Shown here in pieces: positions 29,952 to 64,000 of a stretch of 64,000 nucleotides of DNA (position 1 is the first letter of the stretch; the number at the start of each line of letters is the position of its first letter). Under the pieces are notes generated by a model that did not search any database, was not told the origin of the DNA, and saw nothing but the letters and a program-made list of their open reading frames with translations. The position numbers and the translations under genes were made by a program. Source of the stretch: a virus. The stretch lies in IMG/VR virus record IMGVR_UViG_3300020048_000003, one strand, 5' to 3'.

Positions 29952-30287
29952 ATGAAACATTTACAAATTTATGAAAATTTCATAACTGATTTATTTAAAA
30001 AAAAACAAAAGAGTAAACTTCATCAGGCACTATATCCTGATAATAATAATTTTTTATCTGTAGTTAAAATTAAATATCAGATAGGAGAAATATTAAAAAG
30101 AGTAGAAGATGGAAGATTAGGAAAAGTTCTTGCACATGAGCCTGGTATAACTAATGATAATCAGTTAGAAATAGTATATATGATTAAATTTGGTAATGAA
30201 CTTAATGGATATTTTAAAAAGGATCTTGAAGTACCAACAGAAGAAGAAAAAGAATTTTTTGAAACTATAAACAAATATAATTTATGA
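29952..30287 (+). CDS. family B cassette protein (N-terminus MKHLQIYENF, C-terminus NKYNL)
   Basis: Conserved termini. The stop overlaps the next start as ATGA. Confidence 0.5.
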   Translation: MKHLQIYENFITDLFKKKQKSKLHQALYPDNNNFLSVVKIKYQIGEILKRVEDGRLGKVLAHEPGITNDNQLEIVYMIKFGNELNGYFKKDLEVPTEEEKEFFETINKYNL

Positions 30288-34085: not shown

Positions 34086-34409
34086 TTATAAATTATATTT
34101 ATTTGCTTCCATTTCTATATCTAATTGTTCTAGATATTCTTCTGGTAGAAATACTTCAAATCTGATTGCCTTGTTGTCTAGTAAAAATTTATACTCAAAA
34201 TCATTAAAATCATGATAAAATTTTTGAATATTCTTTTTTTCTAAAATTCGTGCATATTTAATAACAATATTGAGCATACCTTGATTTTCATAAAATAAAA
34301 CATTATCTGCTTCATATTTTTTCAATATATAATGATAATATTTAACGTATTTTTTGTTAAATAACTTATATTCAATGCTTAATGCTTCAAATTGTTTAAC
34401 GTGTTTCAT
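34086..34409 (-). CDS. family B cassette protein (MKHVKQFEAL ... ANKYNL)
   Basis: Conserved termini. Confidence 0.5.
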   Translation of the reverse strand: MKHVKQFEALSIEYKLFNKKYVKYYHYILKKYEADNVLFYENQGMLNIVIKYARILEKKNIQKFYHDFNDFEYKFLLDNKAIRFEVFLPEEYLEQLDIEMEANKYNL

Positions 34410-35205
34410 TTTCTAATATCATTTTTAAATGTGTTGGTAGTTCTAAATCTATATCAAAATCTCTTTTTATTCTTTCCTTCATGTATGTGAAAGTGTAATG
34501 TTTATAATATAATTTTGACCAATTTGAAGGTATTTTTTTATTTAATTCTTCTATTGTTATTGGTAAATAATTTTCATGTAATTCTCTTGACCAATTTTCA
34601 ACATAAGGATATTTTAATAACCAATGTAAAAGAGTTCTATAATTATCAATAGGACCCCAATATTGTTCAAATTCTTTTAATTGTTTAGGATCAGCTTTAT
34701 CTCTTATTATTTTAGTGAAAACTGGACTAAATTTCATGTGTTTTAATGATGGAATCATATCCCTTACTATAATATACTTGAATGTATCAATAAATACTTG
34801 ATCATTCCAAAATTCTCTAATACTTTTTGATGTGCCATATGAATAAACTTCATGAATAACTGATGATAAATATAATGCTGGTGTTTCATATTTATCTGTT
34901 TCTTCTTTTACTAATTCCCAATCATTTGTGAATAAAATATCAGACTTTTCATTCTTCAAAATATTTATCATTCTATCGTCTAAATCATAACCTATTAATT
35001 TTATATCAGGATTTATTTCGTGTATCTTTTTGAGTATGAAACCATTAGCACAACCAAAATCTACAATACAATCTGGTTGAATTTTATTTAGAAAAAACAA
35101 TTTTGATCCTAATCCTTTTTCCATTCTAGATAAATATAAATCTAAATTTGGAATAGGTTGAGCATCAATACTTTCAGTTACTATAAAGTCATTATAAGAT
35201 TTCAT
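34396..35205 (-). CDS. class I SAM-dependent methyltransferase
   Basis: Motif I IVDFGCANGF. Confidence 0.5.
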   Translation of the reverse strand: MKSYNDFIVTESIDAQPIPNLDLYLSRMEKGLGSKLFFLNKIQPDCIVDFGCANGFILKKIHEINPDIKLIGYDLDDRMINILKNEKSDILFTNDWELVKEETDKYETPALYLSSVIHEVYSYGTSKSIREFWNDQVFIDTFKYIIVRDMIPSLKHMKFSPVFTKIIRDKADPKQLKEFEQYWGPIDNYRTLLHWLLKYPYVENWSRELHENYLPITIEELNKKIPSNWSKLYYKHYTFTYMKERIKRDFDIDLELPTHLKMILENETR

Positions 35206-35561
35206 AAATTATATTTTTTTGCATTTCTTCTTAGTTCAATCCATTCGTAAAGTTTAACTGATTCATTAAATTCCATATGAATATAAGAAATTCTATCATA
35301 TGTTGTATCGTGTTCGTCAACAATCTCATCATAAAATTCTACCATTGAATCTATATCATCATATTCATCTAATTGTTCTAATATAGAATCATATCCTTCT
35401 TTTTTACATGCAAAATAAACTTTATTTGCTATAAAATTAAAAGCATCAGTATAATTATCAAATAACCATCTATAATTACTATATCCATCACCAATTCTCT
35501 CAAACGAATAGATATGAGGTTTTTCAGATTCTAGATTTTCGTTAAATTTTATAATTTTCAT
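35202..35561 (-). CDS. family B cassette protein (MKIIKFNENL ... AKKYNL)
   Basis: Conserved termini. Confidence 0.45.
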   Translation of the reverse strand: MKIIKFNENLESEKPHIYSFERIGDGYSNYRWLFDNYTDAFNFIANKVYFACKKEGYDSILEQLDEYDDIDSMVEFYDEIVDEHDTTYDRISYIHMEFNESVKLYEWIELRRNAKKYNL

Positions 35562-35914
35562 AAATTGTATTTTTTTGCTACTTTATTAAGTTCTTTATCT
35601 TCTATCCATTTTTTATATTCTCCTGGTGATCTCCACATTGGAGCATAATTTTTTTGACCACAATTATCACATATCCATTCTGGTGGTTGCATTCCACCTT
35701 TTGGTATTGGTGTTAATTTATAACTATCACATTTAGTACAAATATAATATCTATCACCAAATACGGTGTCATATAGATAAGGATTAAAATTATCTTCAGG
35801 TTGTTCTTGTTTAGTTAAATAATTTCCTTTCGCATTATACAATTCACCTGTACTCCAATTCTTTTTAAATTTAGGTTTCTTTTTGAAGAACTCATAGATT
35901 TTTACGTGTTTCAT
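35558..35914 (-). CDS. family B cassette protein with a zinc ribbon (MKHVKIYEFF ... AKKYNL)
   Basis: CTKCDS...CDNCGQ. Confidence 0.5.
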   Translation of the reverse strand: MKHVKIYEFFKKKPKFKKNWSTGELYNAKGNYLTKQEQPEDNFNPYLYDTVFGDRYYICTKCDSYKLTPIPKGGMQPPEWICDNCGQKNYAPMWRSPGEYKKWIEDKELNKVAKKYNL

Positions 35915-36291
35915 TATAAGTTATATTTATTTGCGATTCGTCTAGTAGGATCAGTATCTTCTATATCTTGATTTAAATTTGAATTTTTTTCTATTTCTTC
36001 TTGTTTTTTAGCAATACTTTTCAATTCTTTCCAATATTTTTTAGAAAATTCATAACGAGTAATTGTATCTCCTTGTGATACAGATACAAAATATTGATTA
36101 GAAATTGCATTATCATTATAAAAACAAAAATACCTTTTATTATCTATTTTAAATCTATATCCAATTTCGTCTTCAATTTCAATTTGTATATTTTCATCTT
36201 TTAAAATTTCTATAATGTTTGACATTATTGGATCACCTATTTTTGGTTTATCTAAACCAAACAATTCGTTAATTTGGAGTATGTGTTTCAT
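35914..36291 (-). CDS. family B cassette protein (MKHILQINELF ... ANKYNL)
   Basis: Conserved termini. Confidence 0.5.
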   Translation of the reverse strand: MKHILQINELFGLDKPKIGDPIMSNIIEILKDENIQIEIEDEIGYRFKIDNKRYFCFYNDNAISNQYFVSVSQGDTITRYEFSKKYWKELKSIAKKQEEIEKNSNLNQDIEDTDPTRRIANKYNL

Positions 36292-36294
36292 ATT

Positions 36295-36735
36295 TTATAA
36301 ATTATATTTTTTGATATCCTCTCTTCTTTGAATAACTTCTCTTGTTATTCTTTTACCTTCATCATCAACACCTCTTTTTTTATACTTATTAATAAGTTCT
36401 ACAATCCAAGGTTCTAAACTTCTACCACCATTACCTTCAACTTCACTTCTAAGTTCTTTTGGTAACCAAATATGATATAGTTTAGTATCTTGTTGAAATC
36501 TTGATCTCATTTCTAACATGGTCATAGCAGCTACACTATTTGAGTCTGCTTGTATTCTTACCATATTTTCAATATCCAATCCTTTTTTAAATAATTTTTT
36601 TACTGGAATAAAGGTTTCAGATGCAAGAAAGATGTAAAAATCATGATCTTCACTTAATGGATTTTCTGTTAATAAATCTCCTAAAAGTTCTATTTTTTCT
36701 TCTGTTTTTGATTCAAATGTTTTTAAATGTTTCAT
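36295..36735 (-). CDS. family B cassette protein (MKHLKTFESK ... KKYNL)
   Basis: Conserved termini. Confidence 0.5.
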   Translation of the reverse strand: MKHLKTFESKTEEKIELLGDLLTENPLSEDHDFYIFLASETFIPVKKLFKKGLDIENMVRIQADSNSVAAMTMLEMRSRFQQDTKLYHIWLPKELRSEVEGNGGRSLEPWIVELINKYKKRGVDDEGKRITREVIQRREDIKKYNL

Positions 36736-37262
36736 TATAAGTTATATTTTTCTGATTCTAGAAAGAATTCAAATTCACTTTTTGTTAAATATTTTATAAA
36801 GTTTTTTATTTCTTCTATCGTATTAATTTTATAAAAATTTACTCCATTTTTAAATTCTTCTGATGTTATTTTTTGAAAATTGTTTGCTTTTTCACATACA
36901 TATACTAAAAAATCTGCAATATTTTTTTCTATTTCTGATATTTTTATTGGATAAATATTATCTTTTATAAAAATTTTTAATAATATTTTATTATCATTTG
37001 TTTTTAGAAAATCAATGGTATTTAACTTTAACATTATATAATATAAACTTTTTCCATCAAGTGGATTATCTTTCATCTTAACGGTCATATTATTTACAGA
37101 AAAATTAAAATCTTTACCTTTTGGCTTTTTTAATTTTGCAAATAATTCTAATTCATCAAGAAAACTTTTTGTTGAATTTACTAATAATTCAACATTTTTT
37201 TTACTTGTTACTGAATCTTTATTAAAAAAATCAAAAAATTCAAATGTTTTTAAATATTTCAT
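36735..37262 (-). CDS. family B cassette protein (MKYLKTFEFF ... SEKYNL)
   Basis: Conserved termini. Confidence 0.5.
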   Translation of the reverse strand: MKYLKTFEFFDFFNKDSVTSKKNVELLVNSTKSFLDELELFAKLKKPKGKDFNFSVNNMTVKMKDNPLDGKSLYYIMLKLNTIDFLKTNDNKILLKIFIKDNIYPIKISEIEKNIADFLVYVCEKANNFQKITSEEFKNGVNFYKINTIEEIKNFIKYLTKSEFEFFLESEKYNL

Positions 37263-37798
37263 AAATTGTATGATTTTATATCTTTTAAGAAGTTAATTGC
37301 TTCTTCAAGTTCTGTTAATTCGCTATTATATATTTTTATTTTTTCATTTTTATTATCATGTATATTTAATAGAATATATTCATCTTGTCCATAAGTATTA
37401 TCTGGTACATGTGATTGTGGTAATCCCATTACGTTATAGAAACTTGCCGAAAAAATAAAATTTAACTCATAATGAAATTTCATATGTAAAAATGCACTTT
37501 TTACTTTGCCAATATAAGAAGAATATCCCCACTTATCTTTTTTCATATTCCATTCAATATATTTACCTTCAATAAGAGGCTTAAATGCTTTATCTCTAAA
37601 TTCTTCTGCTATCATACCTTTTTTACCCCAAGCATTTATATCTTTTGAATCTTTAAATGTTATCATCTTCTTTTCTATAATTTGATCTCTATACGTATTG
37701 TAATCTTTCCATAGCATACTTAAATCAACTTCTCTAAAACTTTCATTTTCAAGAAACTCTCTAATAGTTTGATTTTCATATGGTTTAATATATCTCAT
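37259..37798 (-). CDS. family B cassette protein (MRYIKPYENQ ... KSYNL)
   Basis: Conserved termini. Confidence 0.5.
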   Translation of the reverse strand: MRYIKPYENQTIREFLENESFREVDLSMLWKDYNTYRDQIIEKKMITFKDSKDINAWGKKGMIAEEFRDKAFKPLIEGKYIEWNMKKDKWGYSSYIGKVKSAFLHMKFHYELNFIFSASFYNVMGLPQSHVPDNTYGQDEYILLNIHDNKNEKIKIYNSELTELEEAINFLKDIKSYNL

Positions 37799-38082
37799 AA
37801 GTTATATTTATCTGCTTCCATTTCATAGTCTGGTACTAATCTCATTTCATATGCTGTTTTCCATCCACCACCAGTTTTTTGTACACCACCTCTATTATTT
37901 ATATCTTCACAAAAATAAGAATTATCTCTAAATCCACTCAATGTTACAATAAAAAAAGTATTTAATTCTTCACCTCTTTTATCCAAAACTTTTACAATAT
38001 CACCATTTTTAAATTTTTTAGTAGCATTAATAACAGTATAAGATGCATCAGTTTTTGTTTCGTATGTTTTAATATGTTTCAT
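37795..38082 (-). CDS. family B cassette protein (MKHIKTYETK ... ADKYNL)
   Basis: Conserved termini. Confidence 0.5.
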   Translation of the reverse strand: MKHIKTYETKTDASYTVINATKKFKNGDIVKVLDKRGEELNTFFIVTLSGFRDNSYFCEDINNRGGVQKTGGGWKTAYEMRLVPDYEMEADKYNL

Positions 38083-38417
38083 AAGTTATACCTATTTGCT
38101 ATTATTTTTAAACCTAATTCGGAATTCTCTATTTCTTCTGGTGTTAGTTTTCTAACAAAATATATTTCTTCAAATTTACAATCATCAATTTGAATTTTTT
38201 GAACACCTAAAATAGTTTCAATCATAACATCGTAATAAATATTATAACCTTTTTGTTTTTTTCTTTTTTCACCTAATTTTAATATCCATTTAATATAACA
38301 ATCAATTTCATTATCGTGCATCATTAGTTTTACTAAATCACCAACACGTACAAAGTCATTATTTTCACATAAAATTTCATAATTATCAAACATTTCAAAC
38401 TTTTTTATATACTTCAT
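38079..38417 (-). CDS. family B cassette protein (MKYIKKFEMF ... ANRYNL)
   Basis: Conserved termini, with codon-level variation (AGG TAT AAC TTA). Confidence 0.5.
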   Translation of the reverse strand: MKYIKKFEMFDNYEILCENNDFVRVGDLVKLMMHDNEIDCYIKWILKLGEKRKKQKGYNIYYDVMIETILGVQKIQIDDCKFEEIYFVRKLTPEEIENSELGLKIIANRYNL

Positions 38418-38794
38418 AAGTTATATTTCTTTGCATTTTTATAAATATCTGTATCATTCATATATTCAACAAAGTATTCAATTTGTTCTTTATTAAGAGA
38501 AATTTTTTCAGATTCTTCACCATTATCCCAACTAATATATACACTAATATTATCGTCATCTTTATTTACTCTATATACATCAAAAGCATCTTCATATTCA
38601 GTATAATTTTTATTATCTTCCTCTAATACTTTTGGTAATAAGGTAGGATTATAAAATAAAAATTCTTCCATTCTTCTAAATAAATTTTGTTCTCTAACAA
38701 ACATATCAACCCTTTCATCTAAAAATTTTGATAATTTACTTGCTGACCATCCAACTTCTAAAGTACTTGATTCATAATTTTTTAGATATTTCAT
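38414..38794 (-). CDS. family B cassette protein (MKYLKNYESS ... AKKYNL)
   Basis: Conserved termini. Confidence 0.5.
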   Translation of the reverse strand: MKYLKNYESSTLEVGWSASKLSKFLDERVDMFVREQNLFRRMEEFLFYNPTLLPKVLEEDNKNYTEYEDAFDVYRVNKDDDNISVYISWDNGEESEKISLNKEQIEYFVEYMNDTDIYKNAKKYNL

Positions 38795-39651
38795 AGTTCC
38801 ATTAATTTGTTTGTATATAGATAATACATAAATGCTGTCATGATTTTTTCACGACTCCATTTATCAATCATTATGGGTATATTTAAATATTCTTTATATT
38901 TATTTGAGTACTCATCTTCAAATTTTATTAAATATTCGTTGAATATTGTTAATGAATCTGCTTTAACTATATCACTATAAAGCTTATATGGATCCGTTTC
39001 TTTTTGTTTCTTTTTTAATTTATCAATATCTTTTGCTCTATCAACATTTAAGTATAAAATATCACTAATTTGTTGATCTGTCAATCCTCTTTTTACATTT
39101 TTTAAGTGATTAACAATAATATTTGTGATAATATTAGATTTTCTACCATACATTTTTTTAACAATTCTAGTAAAATTTTCTGCAAATTCTTTTTTGAAAG
39201 TATTTGTAATATCTTCAAAGTTTTCTTCTTCTTTTTTTAATTTTCTTGTTCCTGAAAATTCATGTAGCCAATTACCAGATATTAATTGATAATTTTTATA
39301 GCCTCTCTCAATCTTTTTTGTGATTTCTGTGAATGTTGATTGAATTCTTTCTACTCTTTTCCATTGTTCATTTCCAAAATCATCTTTTTCAGTTAATAGA
39401 TATGTTTCAACATAATATTTTCTATCATAAGAAAATAGAATAAATAATTTATCTTGATGAATAGATATGATTAATGTATTTTTTGATCTACGTAAAGCAG
39501 AAACAGCATCTTTTTTATATGTTAAATTTTTCCATTGTGCATCATCAGAAATAGCATAATTCTTTTGTATGCTTTTCATTACTGAATATGGTACACCTAT
39601 TTCTAATAATGATGTTTTTTCAAATAATTTGAAAGATAATATAAATTTCAT
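38791..39651 (-). CDS. family B-like protein, first gene of the minus-strand array (MKFILSFKLFE)
   Basis: N-terminal similarity only. Confidence 0.45.
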   Translation of the reverse strand: MKFILSFKLFEKTSLLEIGVPYSVMKSIQKNYAISDDAQWKNLTYKKDAVSALRRSKNTLIISIHQDKLFILFSYDRKYYVETYLLTEKDDFGNEQWKRVERIQSTFTEITKKIERGYKNYQLISGNWLHEFSGTRKLKKEEENFEDITNTFKKEFAENFTRIVKKMYGRKSNIITNIIVNHLKNVKRGLTDQQISDILYLNVDRAKDIDKLKKKQKETDPYKLYSDIVKADSLTIFNEYLIKFEDEYSNKYKEYLNIPIMIDKWSREKIMTAFMYYLYTNKLMEL

Positions 39652-40603: not shown

Positions 40604-41545
40604 TTACTTTTCATCATCTAATTCAAAGAAGTCTTCTGCATCATCGTTTTCGCCGAATGTTGCTTCATCTTCAGGTTCTTTAGTTGAGAATGTATCAGAT
40701 GCTTTTTGTATTGCTCTTTCTGACATATTAATATCGTTTCCGACTAATACTTCAAGAATTTGTGATACTTTGTAGCGATCTTCTGCTGTCCATTCTTTTG
40801 GAAGATGATCTTCCAAATTAACAGTGCGTTCCATTAAGAATTGAGTAATCTTTTCTTTAACTTTAGGATTTGTGATTTTGTTTTTTCCAGTTTTTGGATC
40901 AACTTCAACAGGTGCTTTCTTACCTTGAATTTGAATAGGAGAGATATCCATAAATGTACTTGAATCATAATTAGGATAATCACCTAATTGTTTCATAACA
41001 AGTTTAAAGTTTTTACCATTAGCCAAGTCAAATACATTACAAGGGTCGCCTGAAATGCCATCTTTTTGGTCTTTGATTTTTTCTTTAATCTTGTAGCCAT
41101 AAGGATAAATTAGAATTTTTCCTTCTAATTCACGATTTTGTTCATCTTCAATAACAAGAATATAAGAATAATATTTTGTGTTTCTTCCAATAAGTTCTGC
41201 CTTTTCTACATCAGAAGCATTTTTTGAATTTTTTAATTTCCAGTACATTGTACAAAAATCACACTTGTCAGTAAAATTTTTCATACAGTCATAATATCCC
41301 ATTAATTCAGGATGATTTTTAAAATCAACATAGTGCTGGTGTTTTTCAATTGCTGCTTGTAATACTTTTCCTTCTTTGGAGAGATTGGGTAAAAAACGGA
41401 TTGTTGAGATATATCCTTTTTTCTTGTCGGTAATTTTTGGACGATAGATACCATCTAAACTACCACCTTTTTTTTCTAGAAAATCTAGAGTTTCACTTCC
41501 TGCGTCAATACTGTCAAAAATATCAACATTTTCAATTTCTTTCAT
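40604..41545 (-). CDS. putative ssDNA-binding protein (T4 gp32-like)
   Basis: His...C-x7-C-x2-C zinc site HPELMGYYDCMKNFTDKCDFC. Acidic C-terminal tail ...DDAEDFFELDDEK. Confidence 0.4.
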   Translation of the reverse strand: MKEIENVDIFDSIDAGSETLDFLEKKGGSLDGIYRPKITDKKKGYISTIRFLPNLSKEGKVLQAAIEKHQHYVDFKNHPELMGYYDCMKNFTDKCDFCTMYWKLKNSKNASDVEKAELIGRNTKYYSYILVIEDEQNRELEGKILIYPYGYKIKEKIKDQKDGISGDPCNVFDLANGKNFKLVMKQLGDYPNYDSSTFMDISPIQIQGKKAPVEVDPKTGKNKITNPKVKEKITQFLMERTVNLEDHLPKEWTAEDRYKVSQILEVLVGNDINMSERAIQKASDTFSTKEPEDEATFGENDDAEDFFELDDEK

Positions 41546-42425: not shown

Positions 42426-45137
42426 ATGGCTTTATTAAAGTTATCAAGTATAAAACCTACTATTGCAACAAATGCACAATCATCTGATTTATCAAGTTCT
42501 GTGAGTGGTAATTTAGGTCTTATAGAATCTCAAACAAATTTAAAGAATAATGATTACATTAATATTAGGAATGCTGTTAAAATATTAGAAAAATATTCTA
42601 ATTGGAATGGATATACAAAACTTTATACCGAAGTACAGAGTAATTTTCATTTAGGTGATATAGTTTATATTACATATACAGAACCGACAATTGATTCAGA
42701 GACATTTAATCTTGAAAATCCATCCGTACCATTTGCTGATTTCTATTTGGGTTATAAAGTATTACATGCTAATCCATATAAAAATATGGTTGTTATTGAT
42801 AGATATTTCAATGATATAACTTCTGGTAAAAAGTTAAAAAATCAATATCTAAGTAAAATATCTTGTAGAGGCGGTGATTATTATGATGATGTTGCTGATG
42901 GTGTAGTTTTTTACGATTGTAATATTTTTAATAACACATTTGCACCATTAACAGGCATAGTTAGTGGTTCAACAATTGCTGGTGCAGTTATAAATTGTTT
43001 CGGAGTTAGTTCTATATCAGATTCTGGTGGTTCATATTCAATGAATGTGCCTATTGGTCCTGTTATCTTAAATTGTCAAGCAACTGGTTATATTGGTAGA
43101 ACACTTTTTTTGAATATACAAGAAAACACAACAAATGTACAAGATATTCTCATGACTCTTGGCTCAAATTCAATAACTATAAGTGCTGATGCTACAACAA
43201 TTTGTGCAGGTAAAACTATTACATTTTCTGTTAGTAGTATGATAGGCTATTCAGATCCAATAGTTAGTTATTTATGGAAAATAAATGGAATAAACGTAGG
43301 AACTGATAATTCAATTTTTGCATATAGTTCATTTTCAAATGGTGATGTTGTAACATGTGAAGTTAATGATGATATTACTTCAAGTGTAAGTAACTCTATT
43401 ACAATAACTGTTCAGCCAGTTAAAAATGTAAATATACATATTGCAAATACTCCAAATTCTATGTTTGGAAATAGATGTTATGTTAATCTAATATATCATA
43501 TTATGTTTGTTGCTACAACAGAAAATGTTTGTGCTGGTGATGTTTATCAATGGTATAAAAATGATATTGCGGTTGGTACTAATTCAAATACTTATGAAGA
43601 AATTGCACCAATGGAATTAGATAGATTCTATTGTGTTGTGACAAGTGGCTGTCTTTGTCCAAATGTACCATCGGCACAATCCAATACAGTAGAATTACGT
43701 TCTAGAAAAATACATATAACAAGCAATCAAGCATCAAATACTATTTGTAGCGGAACTACAGTTCATTTTTATGCTACACAATCTGGATTTAAGGATCCTA
43801 TATATACTTGGAAAGTTAATGGTGTAGCATCTATGTTTATACCAACAAACAACACAACCTATTCTACTATGTTATCAACTGGTGATATTGTTACTTGTGA
43901 ATGTAAAGATGCTAATGATAGTTTTCCTGCTGATACAAGTAATCCAATAACATTTATCGTTGTTCCATCTTCTACATTTGAAGTTGAAATTGTTAATCCT
44001 ATTTATATTCCATCTGGTGGATATAATACTATTTATTTTAATCCTTCTAACACTTCAATGAATCTTGAAGGTGAAATCCAAGGAACAGCATATACTGGTG
44101 ATACATTAAAATGGTACAGAAATGCCACTTTACTTTCAACAACAGTTATTACGAATCCATTATCACCAACTTCAACATATACATTAGATTTACCACAAAA
44201 TCAGGATCAGATAAATTTAGTTGGTCATAGTACCTGTGTTTGTAATGTTGTGAGAGATGTTACATTTAGTGCCGAACTTATCGCTATGTCTGTTCAGATA
44301 TCTTCAAATAATTCTTCAAATTTATGTTCAGGTAGCACAATTGCATTTACATCTTCTTTAATAGGATTTATAATTCCTACATATCAATGGAAACGAAATG
44401 GATCAAATATTGGTGGTGCTACAACATCAACATATTCATCAGCATCATTAAATAATGGCGATGCAATTACTTGTGTTGTGACAGAGTCACCTAATTCTAT
44501 TACAAGTAATGCGATTTCTGTGATTGTTAATAAGAAAACTGATTTTGAACTTGATATAACACAAAATTCATCATTACCTATTTATAATTCTAATCCACCT
44601 TCTTCCGGTGATTATTTTATACCTGTTGCTAATGAAGATGGATTAAGTATATCTTTTACTGCTATCGCAAATGCAAATCCAACTGTAACATATTCACCAA
44701 CATATCAATGGTACTATATTAGAACTGGTGTTCATGCTGTGAATGGAGCAACAACAACTAATTTAGTCTGGAATGAACCTTTAAATAACGATACTATTTA
44801 TTGTAAAATGAATAGTAACTATAATTGTATAAATACATATGGTCCTATTGTTGATAGTCAACAAGTTAGAATTGTATTTAAAAGTATAAGTATTTTATAT
44901 TCACCACCTAATTTTTATTCAAGTATTATTGGATTTAATACACCAATATATCAATGGTTCTCTGGTACAACTATAAGTAATGTTGCTACATGGGTTGGTG
45001 CAACAAGTTCAACTTCTCCTCCTAGATCATATTCTAGTGGAAATGCAGTTCAATGTATGGTAACTGAAGGAGATGTATTATCTGGAGATTATGATTATTT
45101 TGCTTACAGTGAAGTTTTAGTTTATCCTTTTACTTAA
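42426..45137 (+). CDS. large Ig-like/PKD-like repeat protein (adhesin or tail-fibre candidate)
   Basis: At least four repeats of ICxGxTxxF...Y.WK.NG.......Y.....GD.VTCEV. Confidence 0.55.
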   Translation: MALLKLSSIKPTIATNAQSSDLSSSVSGNLGLIESQTNLKNNDYINIRNAVKILEKYSNWNGYTKLYTEVQSNFHLGDIVYITYTEPTIDSETFNLENPSVPFADFYLGYKVLHANPYKNMVVIDRYFNDITSGKKLKNQYLSKISCRGGDYYDDVADGVVFYDCNIFNNTFAPLTGIVSGSTIAGAVINCFGVSSISDSGGSYSMNVPIGPVILNCQATGYIGRTLFLNIQENTTNVQDILMTLGSNSITISADATTICAGKTITFSVSSMIGYSDPIVSYLWKINGINVGTDNSIFAYSSFSNGDVVTCEVNDDITSSVSNSITITVQPVKNVNIHIANTPNSMFGNRCYVNLIYHIMFVATTENVCAGDVYQWYKNDIAVGTNSNTYEEIAPMELDRFYCVVTSGCLCPNVPSAQSNTVELRSRKIHITSNQASNTICSGTTVHFYATQSGFKDPIYTWKVNGVASMFIPTNNTTYSTMLSTGDIVTCECKDANDSFPADTSNPITFIVVPSSTFEVEIVNPIYIPSGGYNTIYFNPSNTSMNLEGEIQGTAYTGDTLKWYRNATLLSTTVITNPLSPTSTYTLDLPQNQDQINLVGHSTCVCNVVRDVTFSAELIAMSVQISSNNSSNLCSGSTIAFTSSLIGFIIPTYQWKRNGSNIGGATTSTYSSASLNNGDAITCVVTESPNSITSNAISVIVNKKTDFELDITQNSSLPIYNSNPPSSGDYFIPVANEDGLSISFTAIANANPTVTYSPTYQWYYIRTGVHAVNGATTTNLVWNEPLNNDTIYCKMNSNYNCINTYGPIVDSQQVRIVFKSISILYSPPNFYSSIIGFNTPIYQWFSGTTISNVATWVGATSSTSPPRSYSSGNAVQCMVTEGDVLSGDYDYFAYSEVLVYPFT

Positions 45138-49313: not shown

Positions 49314-49634
49314 TTAAGTAACATCGTTTAATTTTTTAAGTTTTTCTTTTCTTTGATAAGTTATTATTAATTTTTTCATTAATTTATCACGTTCAAACTT
49401 ATTATAACCTAATTTTTGCATCATATTTGAAGTTATATTATTAGGTATGTTTATAATTTTTTCATATTTGCCTCTACTAAGTCTTTTTACAAATCCGGAA
49501 TTAAGCATATGATTAATATATTGACCCTCAGTAGAATTGCTGCTATCGGTTATACGGAGAGATATTCTCATTTCTTTTTTTGTAAATATTTTATTATTAT
49601 TTACAAAATCTACAACATCAGACCACTTACTCAT
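49314..49634 (-). CDS. hypothetical protein, family A
   Basis: C-terminal tail QRKEKLKKLNDVT. Confidence 0.45.
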   Translation of the reverse strand: MSKWSDVVDFVNNNKIFTKKEMRISLRITDSSNSTEGQYINHMLNSGFVKRLSRGKYEKIINIPNNITSNMMQKLGYNKFERDKLMKKLIITYQRKEKLKKLNDVT

Positions 49635-50064
49635 TTGTTAATTTTTTTAATTTTTCTTTTCTAAGTTCTTTTAATGGTGTTTTATTAAAATCTTCTATGT
49701 CAACAAAACAACCTCCACCAAAAAATGCTTGTATGCCAGATTTACTTGTTAGTGTCATTCCCAAATAACTTTCACCATCTAAATGAAATGAACCAATTTT
49801 TTCTATATAATTTTTACTACCATTAAATACATCTGTATCATCACCAATTGTTAGAACTTTATTATCATTAAGTCTTAAAATTGAATGAATATAATAATTA
49901 TCATACCAATTATATGTAGCATTTAATATTATAAAATTAAATTCTGAGTCTTTTTCTGTTATTATTATATTATTCCACTTCTCACGAGTTCTTAATTTTA
50001 AGAATCCATATTTTTCCTTGGTTACTATTCGTTTATAATAACTTAAAATTTTATAATTGGACAT
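49627..50064 (-). CDS. hypothetical protein, family A
   Basis: C-terminal tail LRKEKLKKLTNE. Confidence 0.45.
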   Translation of the reverse strand: MSNYKILSYYKRIVTKEKYGFLKLRTREKWNNIIITEKDSEFNFIILNATYNWYDNYYIHSILRLNDNKVLTIGDDTDVFNGSKNYIEKIGSFHLDGESYLGMTLTSKSGIQAFFGGGCFVDIEDFNKTPLKELRKEKLKKLTNE

Positions 50065-51309: not shown

Positions 51310-52128
51310 TTATTCTGATTTTTTTAGTTTTTCTACCTTTCTTCGTTTTCTTTCTTGATAGGTTATACCTTTAATAAAATGATTATCAATTTCATTTTGA
51401 TATTTTTGTCTATAGTCCTCAACATTATTTAGTCTTTCTTTTGCCATTTTAATATAATTTTCAGATATATCAATACCTACATAATTACAACCAAACAATG
51501 TTGCTGAAAGTGCGACGGTGCCAGATCCGCAATAAGGATCTAATACAATTTTATCCTTATCATTGTCAAATATAGAGTAGATAATCCTTGTAGGCAATTC
51601 TAACGGAAAAGGCGCAGGATGTGGGTTTTTATTCTCAGGCATTATATCCCATATGGCTGTAGCATTTGCGTGTTTTGGTAAAAGTTCTTTTCCTATTTTA
51701 GAATGGTTTGGTTTGTATAGCCAATAAATTCTTTCGTCTGTTTGCCAAAATCTCCATCCTCTTAAATTTCCAGTTATTTTTCTATTCCATACAATTTCTT
51801 GTTTAATCATGAAATTAGTTTTACTTAACCAAAGTATTGGATGAATCATATTTCCTTCATCCCATCTACATTTATGATTATAAAAAAATGAACCACCAGG
51901 TTTTAAAGTTCTATAAACTTCATTGATTACTTCAATCTGACGACTTTGATATACATCTTCTGGAAGATTATCATCATAAGAATCATACTTTACTTTTTTA
52001 ATAATCTGACCTTGATTATTTCGCTTATTATAGGGTGGGCTTGTAATTGCGAGATCAAAATAGTCAGAATCTATCAATTGTAATGTTTTTAATGTTTCTC
52101 CTATTAGTAATTCATTTAGTGGTTTCAT
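51310..52128 (-). CDS. DNA methyltransferase, beta class (N4-C/N6-A; motif IV SPPY before motif I), family A tail
   Basis: DLAITSPPYNKRN, then LDPYCGSGTVALSA. C-terminal tail RKRRKVEKLKKSE with no downstream gene. Confidence 0.7.
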   Translation of the reverse strand: MKPLNELLIGETLKTLQLIDSDYFDLAITSPPYNKRNNQGQIIKKVKYDSYDDNLPEDVYQSRQIEVINEVYRTLKPGGSFFYNHKCRWDEGNMIHPILWLSKTNFMIKQEIVWNRKITGNLRGWRFWQTDERIYWLYKPNHSKIGKELLPKHANATAIWDIMPENKNPHPAPFPLELPTRIIYSIFDNDKDKIVLDPYCGSGTVALSATLFGCNYVGIDISENYIKMAKERLNNVEDYRQKYQNEIDNHFIKGITYQERKRRKVEKLKKSE

Positions 52129-53349: not shown

Positions 53350-53622
53350 CTATATTGATTGGCATAATTTTTTCAATTTTAATTTTCTATCTAATTTCTT
53401 AGTTGTGAATCTTGATGAAAAACAATTAATTATTCCTATATCACTATAAATTTGTACTTCATCAGCGTTATATTCTCTATATGATCTAATTACTGTATAT
53501 TCATTACCTTCTGTTAAATAATGAGTTAACCCCATGTTACAAATACAGATGATTCTATCACCTTCTTTCCATTTAGGGGTTCTCTTATCTGTTGGTTCAA
53601 AATATTTATATTTCATTTTCAA
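53350..53622 (-). CDS. small family A protein
   Basis: C-terminal tail LDRKLKLKKLCQSI. Confidence 0.4.
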   Translation of the reverse strand: MKMKYKYFEPTDKRTPKWKEGDRIICICNMGLTHYLTEGNEYTVIRSYREYNADEVQIYSDIGIINCFSSRFTTKKLDRKLKLKKLCQSI

Positions 53623-53881
53623 TGTTTTTAATCTTTTTTCTTCTTAATTCTTTTATTCCTGTAAAATGTTCTAATCTTGGATAACCATATAATGCAACAA
53701 ATAAGTTATAATTTATATTTACAAATTTAGTTGATAAAATAGTGATAAAATTATGATTATCATCAATATCAGTTATAATGAATTTATCATTTTTATTGAT
53801 AAGATGAGAACGACCCTGAGGATCTGTTGTTCTAAACTCTATTTTAGCAAATAAAACATCTCCAACCTTATAACCGTACAT
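53606..53881 (-). CDS. small family A protein
   Basis: C-terminal tail LRRKKIKNIENEI. Confidence 0.4.
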   Translation of the reverse strand: MYGYKVGDVLFAKIEFRTTDPQGRSHLINKNDKFIITDIDDNHNFITILSTKFVNINYNLFVALYGYPRLEHFTGIKELRRKKIKNIENEI

Positions 53882-54239
53882 TTTTTATCTTATTTAATTT
53901 ATCTTTTCTTACCGCCTTTAATGATATTGCAAAATAGTCTGAAATATTTGTATCTTTTGCTAATTCATAATATTTGAAAAATTCATCTTGAATTTGAATA
54001 GTATAGTTACGATCAACTTCGCTATTCAGATAATATACAGGATAAGATGAAACATGCAATTTATATTTTTTACCAAATATAAATCTACTATTATGATAGT
54101 TATTACTTTGATTTGGTGGTACTTGCGTACCAATTGGATATAAGTATTTCGTATCATAGCCAGTTTTTATACAATATAGTTCAGTAATTTTACCGGCTAT
54201 AATATCTCTTGCTATTTCATTGTCTTTCTTTTTGTCCAT
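53868..54239 (-). CDS. small family A protein
   Basis: C-terminal tail VRKDKLNKIKNVRL. Confidence 0.4.
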   Translation of the reverse strand: MDKKKDNEIARDIIAGKITELYCIKTGYDTKYLYPIGTQVPPNQSNNYHNSRFIFGKKYKLHVSSYPVYYLNSEVDRNYTIQIQDEFFKYYELAKDTNISDYFAISLKAVRKDKLNKIKNVRL

Positions 54240-54453
54240 TTATTTTCTCCAATTTTAATTTTCTGTATTTACTCAAAGTTATAAAATAATTTTCAATATA
54301 GTTTATAGAGACTTGAGTATCACATCTATCACCATGTAACATATATCTACCTACATAATTTAAATCTTCAATTTCATAAATTTTACCTTTTTCAAAGTTA
54401 AATCCCCATTGTTTATGCGTTGAAAAATCATCTTTTATTGCTATGTATTTCAT
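54217..54453 (-). CDS. small family A protein
   Basis: C-terminal tail YRKLKLEKINGQKERQ. Confidence 0.4.
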   Translation of the reverse strand: MKYIAIKDDFSTHKQWGFNFEKGKIYEIEDLNYVGRYMLHGDRCDTQVSINYIENYFITLSKYRKLKLEKINGQKERQ

Positions 54454-54673
54454 TTAATTTTTGTTTTCTTTCTTTTTGTATATCTATAAAATGATATTTG
54501 AAATATTCTTCACTAAATTGTCCAATATTTCGTCCTAATATAGATTTATTATTATCATAAACAAAGTAGTTGTACGGATAAAACTCACGTTGTTCAATAA
54601 TTTTATAAATATAAATTTGATTCATTTCAAATGATGAATTTGGTGCAATCGGGACAACTAATTTACATTTCAT
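54428..54673 (-). CDS. small family A protein
   Basis: C-terminal tail ERKQKLNEIHSNKR. Confidence 0.4.
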   Translation of the reverse strand: MKCKLVVPIAPNSSFEMNQIYIYKIIEQREFYPYNYFVYDNNKSILGRNIGQFSEEYFKYHFIDIQKERKQKLNEIHSNKR

Positions 54674-54992
54674 TACTTAGTTTTTTTAATTTTTCTTTTC
54701 TTTCGTTTTTTAAGTTTGTGAAATAATCATGAAAATATTTTTGTCTATCATATGATGTAATACTAATTTGATAATTTTTCTTGAATGAGAATTTATAGCC
54801 TGGTGCAATATCATATAATTTTGTCTTTCTACTTGAAAGAAGATTTTTATTATAATCTATCATATCTTCTGGATAAAAACGCATATATACAACATTAGCA
54901 TCAGCACAAATTTCATATTCATAATATTTGCCTGCCTGAAATTTTCCAAAGCCACATTCAATAGTTTTGATACATTTATATTTTTCCGCCAT
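54663..54992 (-). CDS. small family A protein
   Basis: C-terminal tail ERKEKLKKLSNEM. Confidence 0.4.
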   Translation of the reverse strand: MAEKYKCIKTIECGFGKFQAGKYYEYEICADANVVYMRFYPEDMIDYNKNLLSSRKTKLYDIAPGYKFSFKKNYQISITSYDRQKYFHDYFTNLKNERKEKLKKLSNEM

Positions 54993-55293
54993 CTGAAATA
55001 TTTTTTAATTTTTCTAACTTTTGTTTTCTTAAGAAGACTTCTCCCATATATCTAAAGTTATATCCTTCAGGTCCATAACAATCATAATCATTCCATTCAA
55101 ATTTAGTACCATCATTTTCAACAGATACATAGAAAAAGCCTCTCTTTCTTATTCCTTCTACTATATAATCATCTTCAGAAGAATTTGATAGTCTACTTAA
55201 AATAGCATCAATGCGCATCGGTCTAAATCCTAAATGCCGCATAGAATCTCTGTAACCAGTCTTTTCAGTTATCTTCCAATATACATTTTCCAT
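54976..55293 (-). CDS. small family A protein
   Basis: C-terminal tail LRKQKLEKLKNISDGGKI. Confidence 0.4.
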   Translation of the reverse strand: MENVYWKITEKTGYRDSMRHLGFRPMRIDAILSRLSNSSEDDYIVEGIRKRGFFYVSVENDGTKFEWNDYDCYGPEGYNFRYMGEVFLRKQKLEKLKNISDGGKI

Positions 55294-55459
55294 TTAGTTT
55301 ATCAAGTTTTTCTTTTCTCATTTTTACAATATCTTTACAATCAGGACATTGAGTATTCATATAACAATTCCTGTCCTCTTTGTGATTTTTTCCATGATAA
55401 CAATCATTTTCCCATTTACACATATGAGCCATTGGACAAATTACTATTATTTTTGGCAT
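55265..55459 (-). CDS. small Cys-rich family A protein (starts MPKI)
   Basis: Eight Cys. C-terminal tail MRKEKLDKLNGK. Confidence 0.4.
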   Translation of the reverse strand: MPKIIVICPMAHMCKWENDCYHGKNHKEDRNCYMNTQCPDCKDIVKMRKEKLDKLNGKCILEDN

Positions 55460-55689
55460 ATTTTTTTTAATTTTCTCTTTCTTAATTCCTTTAAAGTTGG
55501 TGTAGGTTTAGGTATCATACTATACTCTATATAACCTCTCATAAAAAGTATAGATCCAAATAAAACATCAATTGCTACTATTGTATACCATTTAACGTGA
55601 TCAGAAGCACTAAATATTAGAAATGCTGTCATAACTAACATTATCTTACCAAATTTCTTCCAATCAACTGTTTTTAGAAATTCTTTCAT
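55447..55689 (-). CDS. small membrane family A protein
   Basis: Two transmembrane helices. C-terminal tail LRKRKLKKICQK identical to that of 55888..56148. Confidence 0.4.
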   Translation of the reverse strand: MKEFLKTVDWKKFGKIMLVMTAFLIFSASDHVKWYTIVAIDVLFGSILFMRGYIEYSMIPKPTPTLKELRKRKLKKICQK

Positions 55690-55900
55690 TTATTTCTTGT
55701 ATTTTTAGTTTTCTAAAATATTCTATTTGATCTCTCTTTTTTTGAAATTCAATTCTTTTATATTCACCCAAATAATATTCATTTTTTATAATGTTTTTAC
55801 AATGAGGACACTTATCATCATAACCTTGCACCACATAATCACAGTACTCACAACGAATTCTGTAATATTTTTTTGGTTGACATGGTGTTATTTTTGGCAT
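55664..55900 (-). CDS. small zinc-ribbon family A protein (starts MPKI)
   Basis: CEYCDY...CPHCKN. C-terminal tail FRKLKIQEINER. Confidence 0.4.
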   Translation of the reverse strand: MPKITPCQPKKYYRIRCEYCDYVVQGYDDKCPHCKNIIKNEYYLGEYKRIEFQKKRDQIEYFRKLKIQEINERISKNS

Positions 55901-56148
55901 ATTTTTTTTAATTTTCTCTTTCTAATTTCTTTTGTCGCTGGTATAAATAAATCACTTCTAAAAGAAGAATTCTTATACTCTTTTACTTTTATCCATTCTT
56001 CATTTAATCCTTTAAATCCAAATTTTATATCAACACTTTCAACAACATGAATTGCATTAATATTATAAGTATTTTTATAATACATCAACGATTCAATATC
56101 GCCTGATAATCTATTCTTATCAAATATAACTAAATCTCCTTTTTTCAT
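55888..56148 (-). CDS. small family A protein
   Basis: C-terminal tail IRKRKLKKICQK. Confidence 0.4.
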   Translation of the reverse strand: MKKGDLVIFDKNRLSGDIESLMYYKNTYNINAIHVVESVDIKFGFKGLNEEWIKVKEYKNSSFRSDLFIPATKEIRKRKLKKICQK

Positions 56149-61079: not shown

Positions 61080-62547
61080 TAAATTCTTTCCAGAAATCTT
61101 TTCTAAATAATTCTAAAATTTTTGGATATGCCAATGGGTTTCCAGCAGTTGAAACAAATTTAGTATTTAAATTTATATTTTGAAATTTTTTGCTTTTTAA
61201 GCAAATATCAATTTTAGATAAATTCTCAACATCATCAATTATTCCATATGCATATTGTGTCATTCCATATAATCCATTATTATCAATAACACTTGTTGGA
61301 TTTGCACCATTACCTAATATAAGTTTTACAATACCAAAATGTCCATTGGTGTTTTTATTAGACCAATGCAAATTAAATTTATTATCTTTTAACACACTAT
61401 AAATACAAGGATATTTAAATTCTGTTGTCATTTCTTTTGACATAAATGGTTTTCTTGTTTCGTATGCTGAATAACTATGTAGAATTTTAACTTTTTCTTC
61501 ATTATTCTTTGCTAATAATTTTTTAATTTCTGAGAACATCCCATTAGGAATAAATTCCATATCGTTAAGATTAACATTCTCTATTGTACCATCTTGACAT
61601 TTAACAATTGTTTGCTTATTTTTTATTGTATTAATATTATTAATACAATAAAAATCATATGGTGTTGTTGCGTTAAAAGTTTTTTCACCATCTGCACTAT
61701 TATGCATCTCAAGATAAATAATATATTTTGATAATAATAGTTTTTGTATATTTTTATATATTCCATCAACATTTCTCCATCCTGATGGATGAACCATAGT
61801 CATATATCCACCTTCTGATAATACTGAAACATATTTTTCAACAAAAAATTGCCAAATAGATTGTGTTTTTTTAAATCCTTCTTTTTTTTCTTGATATGGT
61901 GGATTTCCAACCATAACATCTAGTTTTTCAATTTTCCATTCATTTTTCATATGTTCATCAAATTCTTTTTCTAAAGAATTGCCCCTATACAAGTTCAATT
62001 TGAACTCATTTCTTGGATCAATACTTACCATCCAAAAGAACATATTTTTTATCTGAAGTTCAGCAACATAAATCATATTTTCAACAATATGTTTATATCT
62101 TTTTTCTTGGTTAGGTTCCCATGATTCAAGACCAATCATCAATCGTTTTATGATTATAACCATAAAATTACCAACACCATTACAAAAATCTCCCCATTTC
62201 AAATTAGGATTATTCCATACCTCAACTGGTAAAGTATCTAGCATGTCATTTATCAACCAAAATGCTGTAAATATTTCACCATATGATTTTTTCTCAACTT
62301 CTCCAACTGGATTATATTTTCTTATTCTTTCAATAACTTTATCTAATTCGGATATTCTATCAATAGATTTTATTTTTATAAGCATATTTTTTAATTCATT
62401 GTCTTTTTTATAACAAAGAGCAGCAAGCATAGCAATTCTTTTTTTCTCTCTAGGTAATCCTTCAATTATAACTCGGATTTTTGCACCATGTTGAGATTCA
62501 ATAATGTCTAAAACACTTTGTTCTATATTGTATATATTATTTTTCAT
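61072..62547 (-). CDS. N6-adenine DNA methyltransferase, gamma class, with a C-terminal target-recognition region
   Basis: Motif I-like WGDFCNGVGNFMVII precedes motif IV VMVGNPPYQ. A class-1 promoter lies at 62578-62590. Confidence 0.7.
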   Translation of the reverse strand: MKNNIYNIEQSVLDIIESQHGAKIRVIIEGLPREKKRIAMLAALCYKKDNELKNMLIKIKSIDRISELDKVIERIRKYNPVGEVEKKSYGEIFTAFWLINDMLDTLPVEVWNNPNLKWGDFCNGVGNFMVIIIKRLMIGLESWEPNQEKRYKHIVENMIYVAELQIKNMFFWMVSIDPRNEFKLNLYRGNSLEKEFDEHMKNEWKIEKLDVMVGNPPYQEKKEGFKKTQSIWQFFVEKYVSVLSEGGYMTMVHPSGWRNVDGIYKNIQKLLLSKYIIYLEMHNSADGEKTFNATTPYDFYCINNINTIKNKQTIVKCQDGTIENVNLNDMEFIPNGMFSEIKKLLAKNNEEKVKILHSYSAYETRKPFMSKEMTTEFKYPCIYSVLKDNKFNLHWSNKNTNGHFGIVKLILGNGANPTSVIDNNGLYGMTQYAYGIIDDVENLSKIDICLKSKKFQNINLNTKFVSTAGNPLAYPKILELFRKDFWKEFID

Positions 62548-62685
62548 TTAGATTGTTTTAAGTTTCTTATTCAACTCTGCAAAAGTACGGATTATTTTTG
62601 AATTAAAAAAACTTTTAGTAATTATAAATGTACTGAATTATTATCCGAATTAAAAATTAAAGTTTATATTTTAATATATAACTAT

Positions 62686-63042
62686 ATGAAATATTTTAAG
62701 TCGTTTGAAGATTACTCTAATTACTCAAGTAATAAGTTAAAATTTCCAGATAAAAATTTCCAGATGGCATTTATGGAGGATATGATGGATGTTTATATGA
62801 ATCCTGAATCTTTTTATAAATTTTATTTCAAAGGTGGCTTAACAAGAGAAATGATGTTAGAGTATATTGATCTTTTTATAAAAGTAAGAGGAGGTAATTT
62901 TTTAGGAGACCTTTTTGATAGAGAAATTTTCAGAGACTTATTACTTTTTAAATTTTTTAATGTACCATTAAGTGATATAGATTCAAATATTGAACCATTT
63001 CTAACTGATTTTGAAGTAGATACAAATAAATATAATCTCTAA
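62686..63042 (+). CDS. family B cassette protein (MKYFKSFEDY ... TNKYNL)
   Basis: Conserved termini. Confidence 0.5.
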   Translation: MKYFKSFEDYSNYSSNKLKFPDKNFQMAFMEDMMDVYMNPESFYKFYFKGGLTREMMLEYIDLFIKVRGGNFLGDLFDREIFRDLLLFKFFNVPLSDIDSNIEPFLTDFEVDTNKYNL

Positions 63043-63071
63043 AAGAGATATTTACAAAAGTAAATTAATTT

Positions 63072-63374
63072 ATGAAATATATCAAACTATTTGAATTACT
63101 TGAACTTGAGCAATATAGTAAATATTGGAAGATAAGAACAGATACACCATACTATAACATTAGTTTAGATAAAATAAAAATGCCAAAAGATATACAAAAA
63201 GATTATTTAGATTCAGAAATAAGAAGAAGATATTTTAAAAATTTAAAATTTGTTTTTATTGCAAAAGAACAAGCAGGAACAGGATTTGAATGGACTTGGA
63301 GTGGTTATGAAACTGAATATAGAAAAAAGTTCAGAAATATGGGTGATCACATCAGAAGATTTAGAAGAATATGA
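63072..63374 (+). CDS. family B cassette protein (MKYIKLFELLE). The KYNL junction downstream is in a different frame.
   Basis: The stop at 63372-63374 precedes the junction element AAATAAATATAATTTATGA, which reads ...VNKYNL in the +1 frame. Confidence 0.45.
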   Translation: MKYIKLFELLELEQYSKYWKIRTDTPYYNISLDKIKMPKDIQKDYLDSEIRRRYFKNLKFVFIAKEQAGTGFEWTWSGYETEYRKKFRNMGDHIRRFRRI

Positions 63375-63404
63375 ATTAAATAAAACTGTAAATAAATATA
63401 ATTT

Positions 63405-63689
63405 ATGAAATATATTAAAACATACGAATCATACATCCAGCCTGGAAACAAAGAAGTAAATTACAAAATAGGTGATATAGTAGTTTGTAGTACTAAAAAA
63501 AAACTTATGAATCCAAATGATCCTGGTAAAGTGCCAATATATGGTAGAAAATATAAAATATTAGATATGTTTCAAAATCAATATCTAACAATACAAGATA
63601 TTGTTGATACTTCTTTTATTCAAATTGGATGGGATAAAAGAAATTTTACATCAGAAATAAAATGGGATTTAAATAATTATAACTTATAA
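63405..63689 (+). CDS. family B cassette protein (MKYIKTYESY ... LNNYNL)
   Basis: Conserved termini. ATGA overlap with the next gene. Confidence 0.5.
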   Translation: MKYIKTYESYIQPGNKEVNYKIGDIVVCSTKKKLMNPNDPGKVPIYGRKYKILDMFQNQYLTIQDIVDTSFIQIGWDKRNFTSEIKWDLNNYNL

Positions 63690-63690
63690 T

Positions 63691-64000
63691 GAAGTACTTA
63701 CAAATATATGAAAGTTGGTATAAAGATTGGTTTCTTAAAAATAAAAAAGAAGAAGAACCAATAATTTATCCTAGTGCTGAAAATCAATATTGGAAACGTA
63801 TTTTTTCAATAACTTTGAATCCAGGATACGGTGCGGTTGTTTTTGATCAAAAACACTTTAATATTGAATTAATTATGAAATTTACGTATGAAATTGATTT
63901 GATGGATGATGGAAAAGGTGGTGAATATCATTTTGACGGAATTTGGAAAACTGCTTTTGATTGGAGTGTTTATTATAAAAATAAGTCTCCCTTATTTGGT
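63691..64000 (+). CDS. family B cassette protein, 3'-truncated by the window end (MKYLQIYESW)
   Basis: Conserved N-terminus. Open to the end of the window. Confidence 0.45.

Follow-up and report, generated by a model that had tools for sequence, protein, structure and literature searches.

The window analyzed here is the full 64,000-nt stretch of the IMG/VR virus record IMGVR_UViG_3300020048_000003, and coordinates are given in its numbering. At its end lies an array of small genes, here called cassettes, which share a conserved N-terminal motif and a C-terminal ending of the KYNL type. We consider it likely that the second of these cassettes has suffered a lineage-specific 8-nt frameshift deletion, that this is ordinary birth-and-death turnover of one dispensable cassette, and that its out-of-frame KYNL ending is neither programmed nor a DNA signal. 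The preliminary description of the window had placed four plus-strand genes of the family (its family B) in this region, and their open reading frames (ORFs) do start at 62686, 63072, 63405, and 63689; it had also noted that the ORF 63072..63374 ends 30 nt early and that …VNKYNL is encoded in the +1 frame, both of which are seen in the sequence. The features concerned are the following.

62686..63042, plus strand: cassette 1, 118 aa, MKYFKSFE…TNKYNL*, with the rare CTC as its Leu codon and same-position homologues in the related contigs L001 and L065.
63072..63374, plus strand: frame-0 ORF of cassette 2, 100 aa, MKYIKLFE…RRFRRI*, native to …KKFRNMGD and then continuing as the out-of-frame HIRRFRRI*.
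63345..63346, plus strand: position of the 8-nt deletion; the missing bases read AAGT(T/A)GAA in relatives and belong to the conserved MGEVEI motif, as placed by DNA and protein alignments.
63346..63408, plus strand: stranded 3′ end of cassette 2, whose +1 frame still encodes (V)ITSEDLEEYELNKTVNKYNL*.
63394..63410, plus strand: junction 17-mer AAATATAATTTATGAAA, in which the KYNL-stop of cassette 2 (now out of frame) overlaps the Met-Lys of cassette 3.
63405..63689, plus strand: cassette 3, 94 aa, MKYIKTYE…NNYNL*, with an identical protein (P0047) on contigs of 286,618 and 209,136 bp.
63689..64000, plus strand: 5′ part of cassette 4, MKYLQIYE…, whose complete gene (165 aa) ends …TTNKYNL at 64186 in window numbering, as read from contig L067.

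The N-terminal motif M-[KR]-x-[ILV]-K-x-[FY]-E is present in 4/4 genes of the interval 62686-64000, and an in-frame C-terminal K-[YF]-N-[LI] precedes the stop codon of cassettes 1, 3, and 4 (cassette 4 as read from L067). In cassette 2 this ending occurs only in the +1 frame, which is open over 63247-63408 and closes with …EDLEEYELNKTVNKYNL, that is, …ITSEDLEEYELNKTVNKYNL, and the frame-0 stop (TGA, 63372-63374) leaves 30 nt to the next ATG at 63405 and 19 nt to the 17-mer. The junctions take different forms, namely an ATGA at 63405, a TAATG at 63689, where the start of cassette 4 shares one base with the stop of cassette 3, and a 29-nt hairpin spacer at 63043-63071. The array had been expected to continue beyond the window, and L067 (209 kb, European Nucleotide Archive (ENA), MEGAHIT-style) indeed carries 15 consecutive family genes from 62686 to 67851, followed by a DUF723 nuclease-like gene starting MITKFQLYE. 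In-frame [KN]-Y-N-[LI] endings are found in 14 of these 15 cassettes, cassette 2 being the sole exception. The locus is best read as one operon-like array of small accessory genes, most of them joined by overlapping stop and start codons, with each cassette seemingly made of an unrelated, fast-evolving core between N-terminal M-K-[YH]-[IL]-K-x-[FY]-E and C-terminal …[ND][AT][KN]-K-[YF]-N-[LI].

When the repaired cassette 2 protein was used as a database query, one close intact homologue was recovered, P0001 (125 aa) on contig L001, and a profile search gave 46 more or less distant homologues, 38 of which were aligned; among the profile-search homologues is P0002 on contig L065, where the upstream gene and spacer are the same as in the window. 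The DNA alignment sets ATGGGTG-ATCACA in the window against ATGGGTGA-AGT(T/A)GAA-ATCACA in both L001 and L065. Aligned three ways, the sequences read ATGGGTG[AAGT(T/A)GAA]ATCACATCAGAAGAT, with the bracketed 8 nt missing from the window, so that the undeleted form of the site is AAGTTGAA and the window form is GGTG^ATCACA. Frame 0 of cassette 2 is native through …KKFRNMGD and the ancestral frame resumes at ITSEDLEE…. All homologues are in frame through YMGEVEIT.EDIE.W…NKYNL, both those from contigs (7/7) and those aligned from the databases (38/38). A scan of metagenomes for further relatives of cassette 2 gave distant matches only (26-32% identity), and neither the locus nor cassette 2 was matched by megablast and tblastn against the INPHARED phages. 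The run of six A residues at 63323-63328 (A6) was ruled out as the shift site, since homologues show frame 0 to be native through FRNMGD.

A recent frameshift had been one of two explanations offered in the preliminary description, and it is supported: the window lacks 8 nt that both nearest relatives have, these bases fall in a motif which every intact homologue examined conserves, and the cassette is the only broken one of 15; the comparison with related phage genomes that it called for shows L001 and L065 both in frame, with the 8 nt. The region in which it suspected an indel, 63340-63375, does contain one (the 8-nt gap at 63345/63346), but the sequencing-error origin that it allowed for is unlikely, the gap being non-homopolymeric and repeated in a second assembly record. 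We also noticed that the deletion created an 8-bp palindrome, GTGATCAC at 63343-63350, with a GATC inside it, and that the genome has many DNA methyltransferases; this is probably coincidental.

With the deletion at 63345/63346, translation would leave the native frame after …NMGD and stop at 63374. An AlphaFold2 model of the intact homologue P0001, built from the 38-sequence alignment, has a mean predicted local distance difference test (pLDDT) score of 84.6 and shows a strand at residues 99-103 (EVEIT) and a helix at residues 108-123 (block pLDDT 91-97), both of which are destroyed in the window copy; the window product is therefore taken to be structurally compromised. Without its last β-strand and C-terminal helix it is, on this model, most likely inactive. 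Residues 1-18 of the model, including the N-terminal family motif, form a low-confidence coil (block pLDDT 52 and 65). A Foldseek search of the P0001 model against the PDB gave no match with E < 0.5, and a single-sequence AlphaFold2 model of cassette 3 was unusable (pLDDT 38.9). The 62-nt tail beyond the deletion has no stop in the ancestral frame, and its identity to L065 and L001 is similar to that of the part upstream of the deletion; window-specific changes are few, namely TGG to TAT at a usually conserved Trp and some synonymous ones. This state of the tail, read from the alignments, fits a recent event. The old-frame …ITSEDLEEYELNKTVNKYNL presumably persists because too little time has passed for it to decay and because the 3′ end carries the start of cassette 3, the last junction bases being the ATG and immediate upstream context of that gene and, as such, presumably still under selection. 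Loss of the stop/start overlap may lower coupling to cassette 3.

The explanation that survives best among the alternatives, albeit an unlikely one, is that the junction is retained as nucleic acid, either as a translation-initiation or coupling region or as a short homology for recombinational cassette exchange. The 17-mer AAATATAATTTATGAAA is repeated: allowing up to 2 mismatches, it has 11 copies in the window vs 2.45 expected, and 0/100 shuffles reach 11. The first locus of the KYNL cassette family lies at 34086-39651 on the minus strand, and other members lie at 29952-30892, 32144, and 5003-5392. Most junctions are ATGA overlaps, an arrangement typical of translational coupling (88/130 junctions in the set picked by the downstream start motif; about 122/230 in the set picked by the C-terminal motif). 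Moreover, the spacer before cassette 2 ends AATTAATTT-ATG, resembling TATAATTT-ATG, the window, L065, and L001 lose synteny precisely at the junction that follows cassette 2, and DUF723 nuclease-like genes share the same N-terminal codons.

The codons at the junctions speak for a different constraint. About 230 non-redundant family members (median 113 aa) were collected from 52 IMG/VR array stretches, with the N-terminal consensus M-K-[YH]-[IL]-K-x-[FY]-E and the C-terminal consensus [LI]-x-x-[ND]-[AT]-[KN]-K-[YF]-N-[LI], and circularity was avoided by picking 130 junctions solely via the N-terminal motif of the downstream gene. At these junctions the Asn is encoded by AAT (78) and AAC (30), with 0 one-step non-synonymous neighbours, the Tyr by TAT (74) and TAC (17), with the conservative Phe as TTT (12) and TTC (4), and the final Leu or Ile by TTA, CTA, CTC, TTG, ATA, and ATT. 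The rarer synonymous codons exceed their background (AAC 27% vs 13%, TAC 15% vs 9%). The stop/start geometry also varies among ATGA, TAATG, TAAATG, and spacers. For the same amino acid, synonymous agreement is 0.795 within loci vs 0.801 between loci, with 650 of 1000 label permutations reaching the observed value, and this within- vs between-locus test gave no signal of gene conversion or junction homogenization. The only visible nucleotide-level constraint is a preference for Leu/Ile codons ending in A, which the ATGA overlap requires. Synonymous variation, fixed amino acids, and the lack of homogenization together show that both termini of the family are kept by protein-level selection as peptides, not as a DNA motif.

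A nucleic-acid role is thus opposed by synonymous positions that vary at background level where the amino acids are fixed, by a geometry that is not fixed and first array genes whose upstream sequences differ, and by the lack of within-genome homogenization, contrary to gene conversion or frequent recombination at junctions. In addition, only the last 10-15 nt or so could be relevant to the downstream start, leaving the whole 62-nt tail unexplained. Two specific forms of the idea were rejected: a TATAAT-type promoter inside the KYN codons, given that TAC and AAC occur no less often than in the background, and concerted evolution of the junction DNA, given the result of the synonymous codon test. 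Of the proposal that the element is kept for a role in coupling, promotion, or recombination, what stands is a limited dual role, as ATG and upstream context of cassette 3 and in the common ATGA overlaps. The analysis removes the misreading of the repeated junction as a DNA signal, which is superfluous and mostly contradicted.

Several points weigh against a recent, inactivating deletion in cassette 2. Its closest intact relatives are about 15-20% divergent at the nucleotide level, too far for the deletion to be dated, and the changes in the tail include the one at the usually conserved Trp (TGG to TAT). A shortened yet functional product is possible, loss of function being deduced from the model of a homologue. 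Finally, the two records that carry the lesion, from the Joint Genome Institute (JGI) and ENA, may come from the same sequencing data. This last point would also favor an assembly or sequencing artefact, in which case the 8 nt would be present in the real genome and the gene would end in frame with KYNL as usual. Such an artefact is quite improbable: the 8-nt gap falls in the non-repetitive GGTG^ATCACA and is not a homopolymer length error, the nearby A6 run not being the site; L067 has 0 mismatches to the window over 10,596 nt, lesion included; the exact 100-aa truncated product is recorded from both JGI (a 286,618-bp contig) and ENA; and similar sporadic lesions occur in cassettes of other contigs.

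Programmed recoding, by which a +1 ribosomal frameshift or transcriptional slippage on A6 would yield a full-length protein ending in KYNL, is hardly credible: a +1 shift at any point of 63250-63371 would bring translation back into the KYNL frame, A6 lies upstream, and re-pairing in the +1 frame is conceivable for TTT-A at about 63360, but 0/45 homologues examined are split or need a frameshift, the junction defined by homology (NMGD | ITSED, GGTG^ATCACA) has no shift-prone or slippery motif, hungry codon, or stop, A6 is on the short side for slippage by RNA polymerase, which would there replace the conserved F.NMGE motif, and the heptamer A-AAA-AAG (63322-63328) promotes -1 shifts where +1 is needed. 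Cassette 2 does resemble genes with programmed frameshifts (dnaX, prfB, and the phage tail chaperone G/GT) in that two overlapping frames are both needed for the homologous full-length protein, but it lacks a conserved shift site and a conserved split, and its slippery heptamer works in the wrong direction.

Frameshift deletion in a dispensable cassette has a closer parallel in the frameshift pseudogenes of accessory genes, where a short non-triplet deletion truncates the ORF and leaves an undecayed remnant readable in the old frame; nothing essential sets cassette 2 apart from these, except that its remnant includes a family-wide C-terminal motif that overlaps the start of the next gene. Among 270 KYNL-type ends scanned, one other frameshift candidate (L054) and one remnant (L022) came up, and these are listed with other decayed copies below.

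L053, about 2243-2534, minus strand: decayed Zn-ribbon cassette, split over two frames.
L054, 1517-1648, minus strand: decayed cassette of about 86 codons, split in the middle.
L022, 7532-7645: decayed cassette, a 37-codon C-terminal remnant behind an intact gene.
GCA_041445565.1 (607-bp contig of an NCBI metagenome-assembled genome): P0028, a 57-aa truncated, near-identical cassette 2 relative ending …RRRYKKI*.

A lesion rate of about 1-2% of cassettes agrees with random decay and not with a recoding device that is being maintained.

Two further elements lie just before the array and within it.

62669..62680, plus strand: promoter-like start-region motif TTTTAATATATA, 5 nt upstream of the first array gene.
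63035..63065, plus strand: twin small hairpins ATCTCT-AAA-AGAGAT and ATTTAC-AAAA-GTAAAT, found by RNA folding, spanning the stop of cassette 1 and the 29-nt spacer.

The exact 12-mer TTTTAATATATA has 6 copies in the window vs 0.46 expected, at 6228, 32128, 39658 (minus strand), 42361 (minus strand), 58365 (minus strand), and 62669; the orientation matches in all, with 5 of the 6 copies lying 4-6 nt before an ATG and the remaining one at 23 nt. Two copies precede the first genes of family arrays, and in L054 the motif also follows a hairpin that looks like a strong terminator. We regard the 12-mer as a candidate promoter or start-region motif of the phage, whose mRNAs might there be leaderless or nearly so; scans for sigma-70 promoters and terminators showed no enrichment inside the array. 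The twin hairpins stand in place of the usual ATGA junction, and the rare Leu codon CTC of cassette 1 forms part of stem 1. The element occurs twice in L065 (112-140 and 2272-2300), where stem 2 of one copy carries three compensatory pair changes (ATTGTT…AACAAT). A search of 62400-64000 against Rfam found nothing and 63035-63065 gave no promoter match; attenuation, processing, and uncoupling are conceivable roles of the spacer.

A scan of IMG/VR with the junction pattern gave 56 stretches, 52 of them with arrays, at 21-30% GC and on contigs of up to 330 kb, and the same pattern in 596 Gb of bacterial and archaeal genomes gave 4 stretches only, none with an array. Pfam and PHROGs scans of ten family members returned nothing significant, and a full-text literature search for KYNL with phage found nothing relevant, so the family with KYNL-type conserved termini appears to be undescribed. 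Its cores are unrelated, including Zn-ribbon-like (a weak, sub-threshold Pfam match), ankyrin, membrane-like, and unknown folds, as well as nuclease-like genes with the N-terminal motif only, and the termini accordingly do not belong to a single fold.

The identity of the phage is suggested by genes elsewhere in the window, which also encodes several DNA methyltransferases and nuclease-like genes.

40604-41545: gp32-like single-stranded DNA-binding protein (SSB), best matches 43-47% identical, from uncultured phage genomes of 634-735 kb.
42426-45137: protein with weak tail and Hoc-like PHROG matches.
11578-14925, minus strand: CarboxypepD_reg plus outer-membrane β-barrel protein (TonB-dependent-receptor/SusC-like), 1,112 aa, of a kind typical of Bacteroidota, amid phage-like sequence.

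Sizes of 634-735 kb are those of the four largest complete genomes in Al-Shayeb et al. 2020, which are members of the Mahaphage clade with Bacteroidetes as their predicted hosts (PMC7162821). Because the gp32-like SSB best matches those genomes, the phage of the window is probably a huge, low-GC, Mahaphage-like one with a Bacteroidota host, as judged from its sequence; the protein at 11578-14925 is consistent with such a host and is possibly an auxiliary surface protein. LR756502, which came up as a blastn match to the junction, was rejected as a carrier of the family: a 40-kb region of it has N-termini of the MKYIK type and no KYNL ends. In this region (L066, LR756502.1 39938-79986, of a 642-kb Mahaphage genome) many genes start MKYIKTYE, MKYIELFE, or MKYLNKYKLFE and 0 end in KYNL. 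Examples are as follows.

L066, 20020-20289: gene with such an N-terminus.
L066, 18594-19112, minus strand: gene with such an N-terminus.
L066, 17728-18597, minus strand: gene with such an N-terminus.

In the Mahaphage clade, then, the N-terminal motif has a wider distribution than the C-terminal one. DUF723/PD-(D/E)XK nuclease-like genes without KYNL are found on three contigs.

L001, 1856-2578: DUF723/PD-(D/E)XK nuclease-like gene.
L065, 861-1583: DUF723/PD-(D/E)XK nuclease-like gene.
L067, 14463-15263 (67867-68667 in window numbering): DUF723/PD-(D/E)XK nuclease-like gene.

These genes, homing-endonuclease-like in look, start MKYIKTFE, MKYIKLFE, and MITKFQLYE and lie within arrays or end them.

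A second conserved-terminus family occupies runs of small genes in the window, as listed here.

53350-56148, minus strand: small-gene run of the second family.
49314-50064, minus strand: small-gene run of the second family.
27732-28638, minus strand: small-gene run of the second family.
7839-8545, minus strand: small-gene run of the second family.
51310-52128, minus strand: small-gene run of the second family.

Its C-termini read …(R/E)KLKKL(xx-xxx), and each gene runs 8-26 nt past the start of the following one, which an A-rich sequence of the AGAAAAGAAAAATTAAAAAAACTAA-ATG type precedes; the KLKKL-type ending is also found on a DNA methyltransferase.

Two phage systems offer a comparison with the KYNL family. 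In phage T4, the capsid-targeting sequence (CTS) is the only conserved feature of the highly diverse internal proteins that are injected (PMC3012670). Like the T4 internal proteins (IPI, IPII, and IPIII, and the polymorphic IP loci), which are small and diverse and share only a short N-terminal leader, about 200 unrelated cores of the KYNL family share M-K-[YH]-[IL]-K-x-[FY]-E, which the one confident model shows as an unstructured extension outside the fold. Unlike in T4, however, the leader differs from MKTYQEFIAE, the C-terminal K[YF]N[LI] is missing from the T4 proteins, and the genes form long arrays with overlapping codons. The T4 prohead protease follows the site rule (L/I)-x-E. In the family leader, [IL]-K-x-[FY]-E, P5 holds the aliphatic residue and P2 an aromatic one, with P3 variable, so that the (L/I)-x-E site is not in register. 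The T4 CTS may nevertheless be taken as the closest functional analogy for the KYNL family, which is known here from its genes.

The other system is that of the promoter/stem-loop (PeSL) cassettes in hyperplastic regions of T4-type phages, where small novel ORFs lie between repeated junctions (PMC2839356, PMC4122927). The gene content of the window, L065, and L001 likewise differs exactly at junctions. PeSLs, in contrast, are non-coding promoter and terminator units thought to act via DNA homology, whereas the KYNL junction is coding and selected as peptide; most KYNL junctions have no intergenic DNA, and the one PeSL-like element is the rare twin-hairpin spacer at 63035-63065.

It is conceivable, if rather doubtful, that hundreds of unrelated small effectors of Mahaphage-like huge phages carry a bipartite peptide tag made up of the N-terminal octapeptide and the C-terminal K[YF]N[LI]. 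Such a tag could be handled by capsid loading for co-injection, in a role like that of the T4 CTS, or by timed recognition by a protease or chaperone. Alternatively, the 5′ codons may serve phage-specific translation initiation, or the termini may act as degrons.

The frameshift itself carries little weight, being one decaying cassette in fifteen, and indicates that arrays turn over by ordinary mutation. The larger point is its context, a big family absent from Pfam and PHROGs whose members, small proteins of huge phages, have nothing in common but two terminal peptides under clear peptide-level selection. If the tag reading is true, cassette 2 with its frameshift would represent a naturally tag-less allele. 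Should the termini serve as a signal for sorting or processing, they would mark out a whole set of candidate effectors, for host manipulation or anti-defence, among uncultured huge phages, and might provide a portable tag for cargo delivery.

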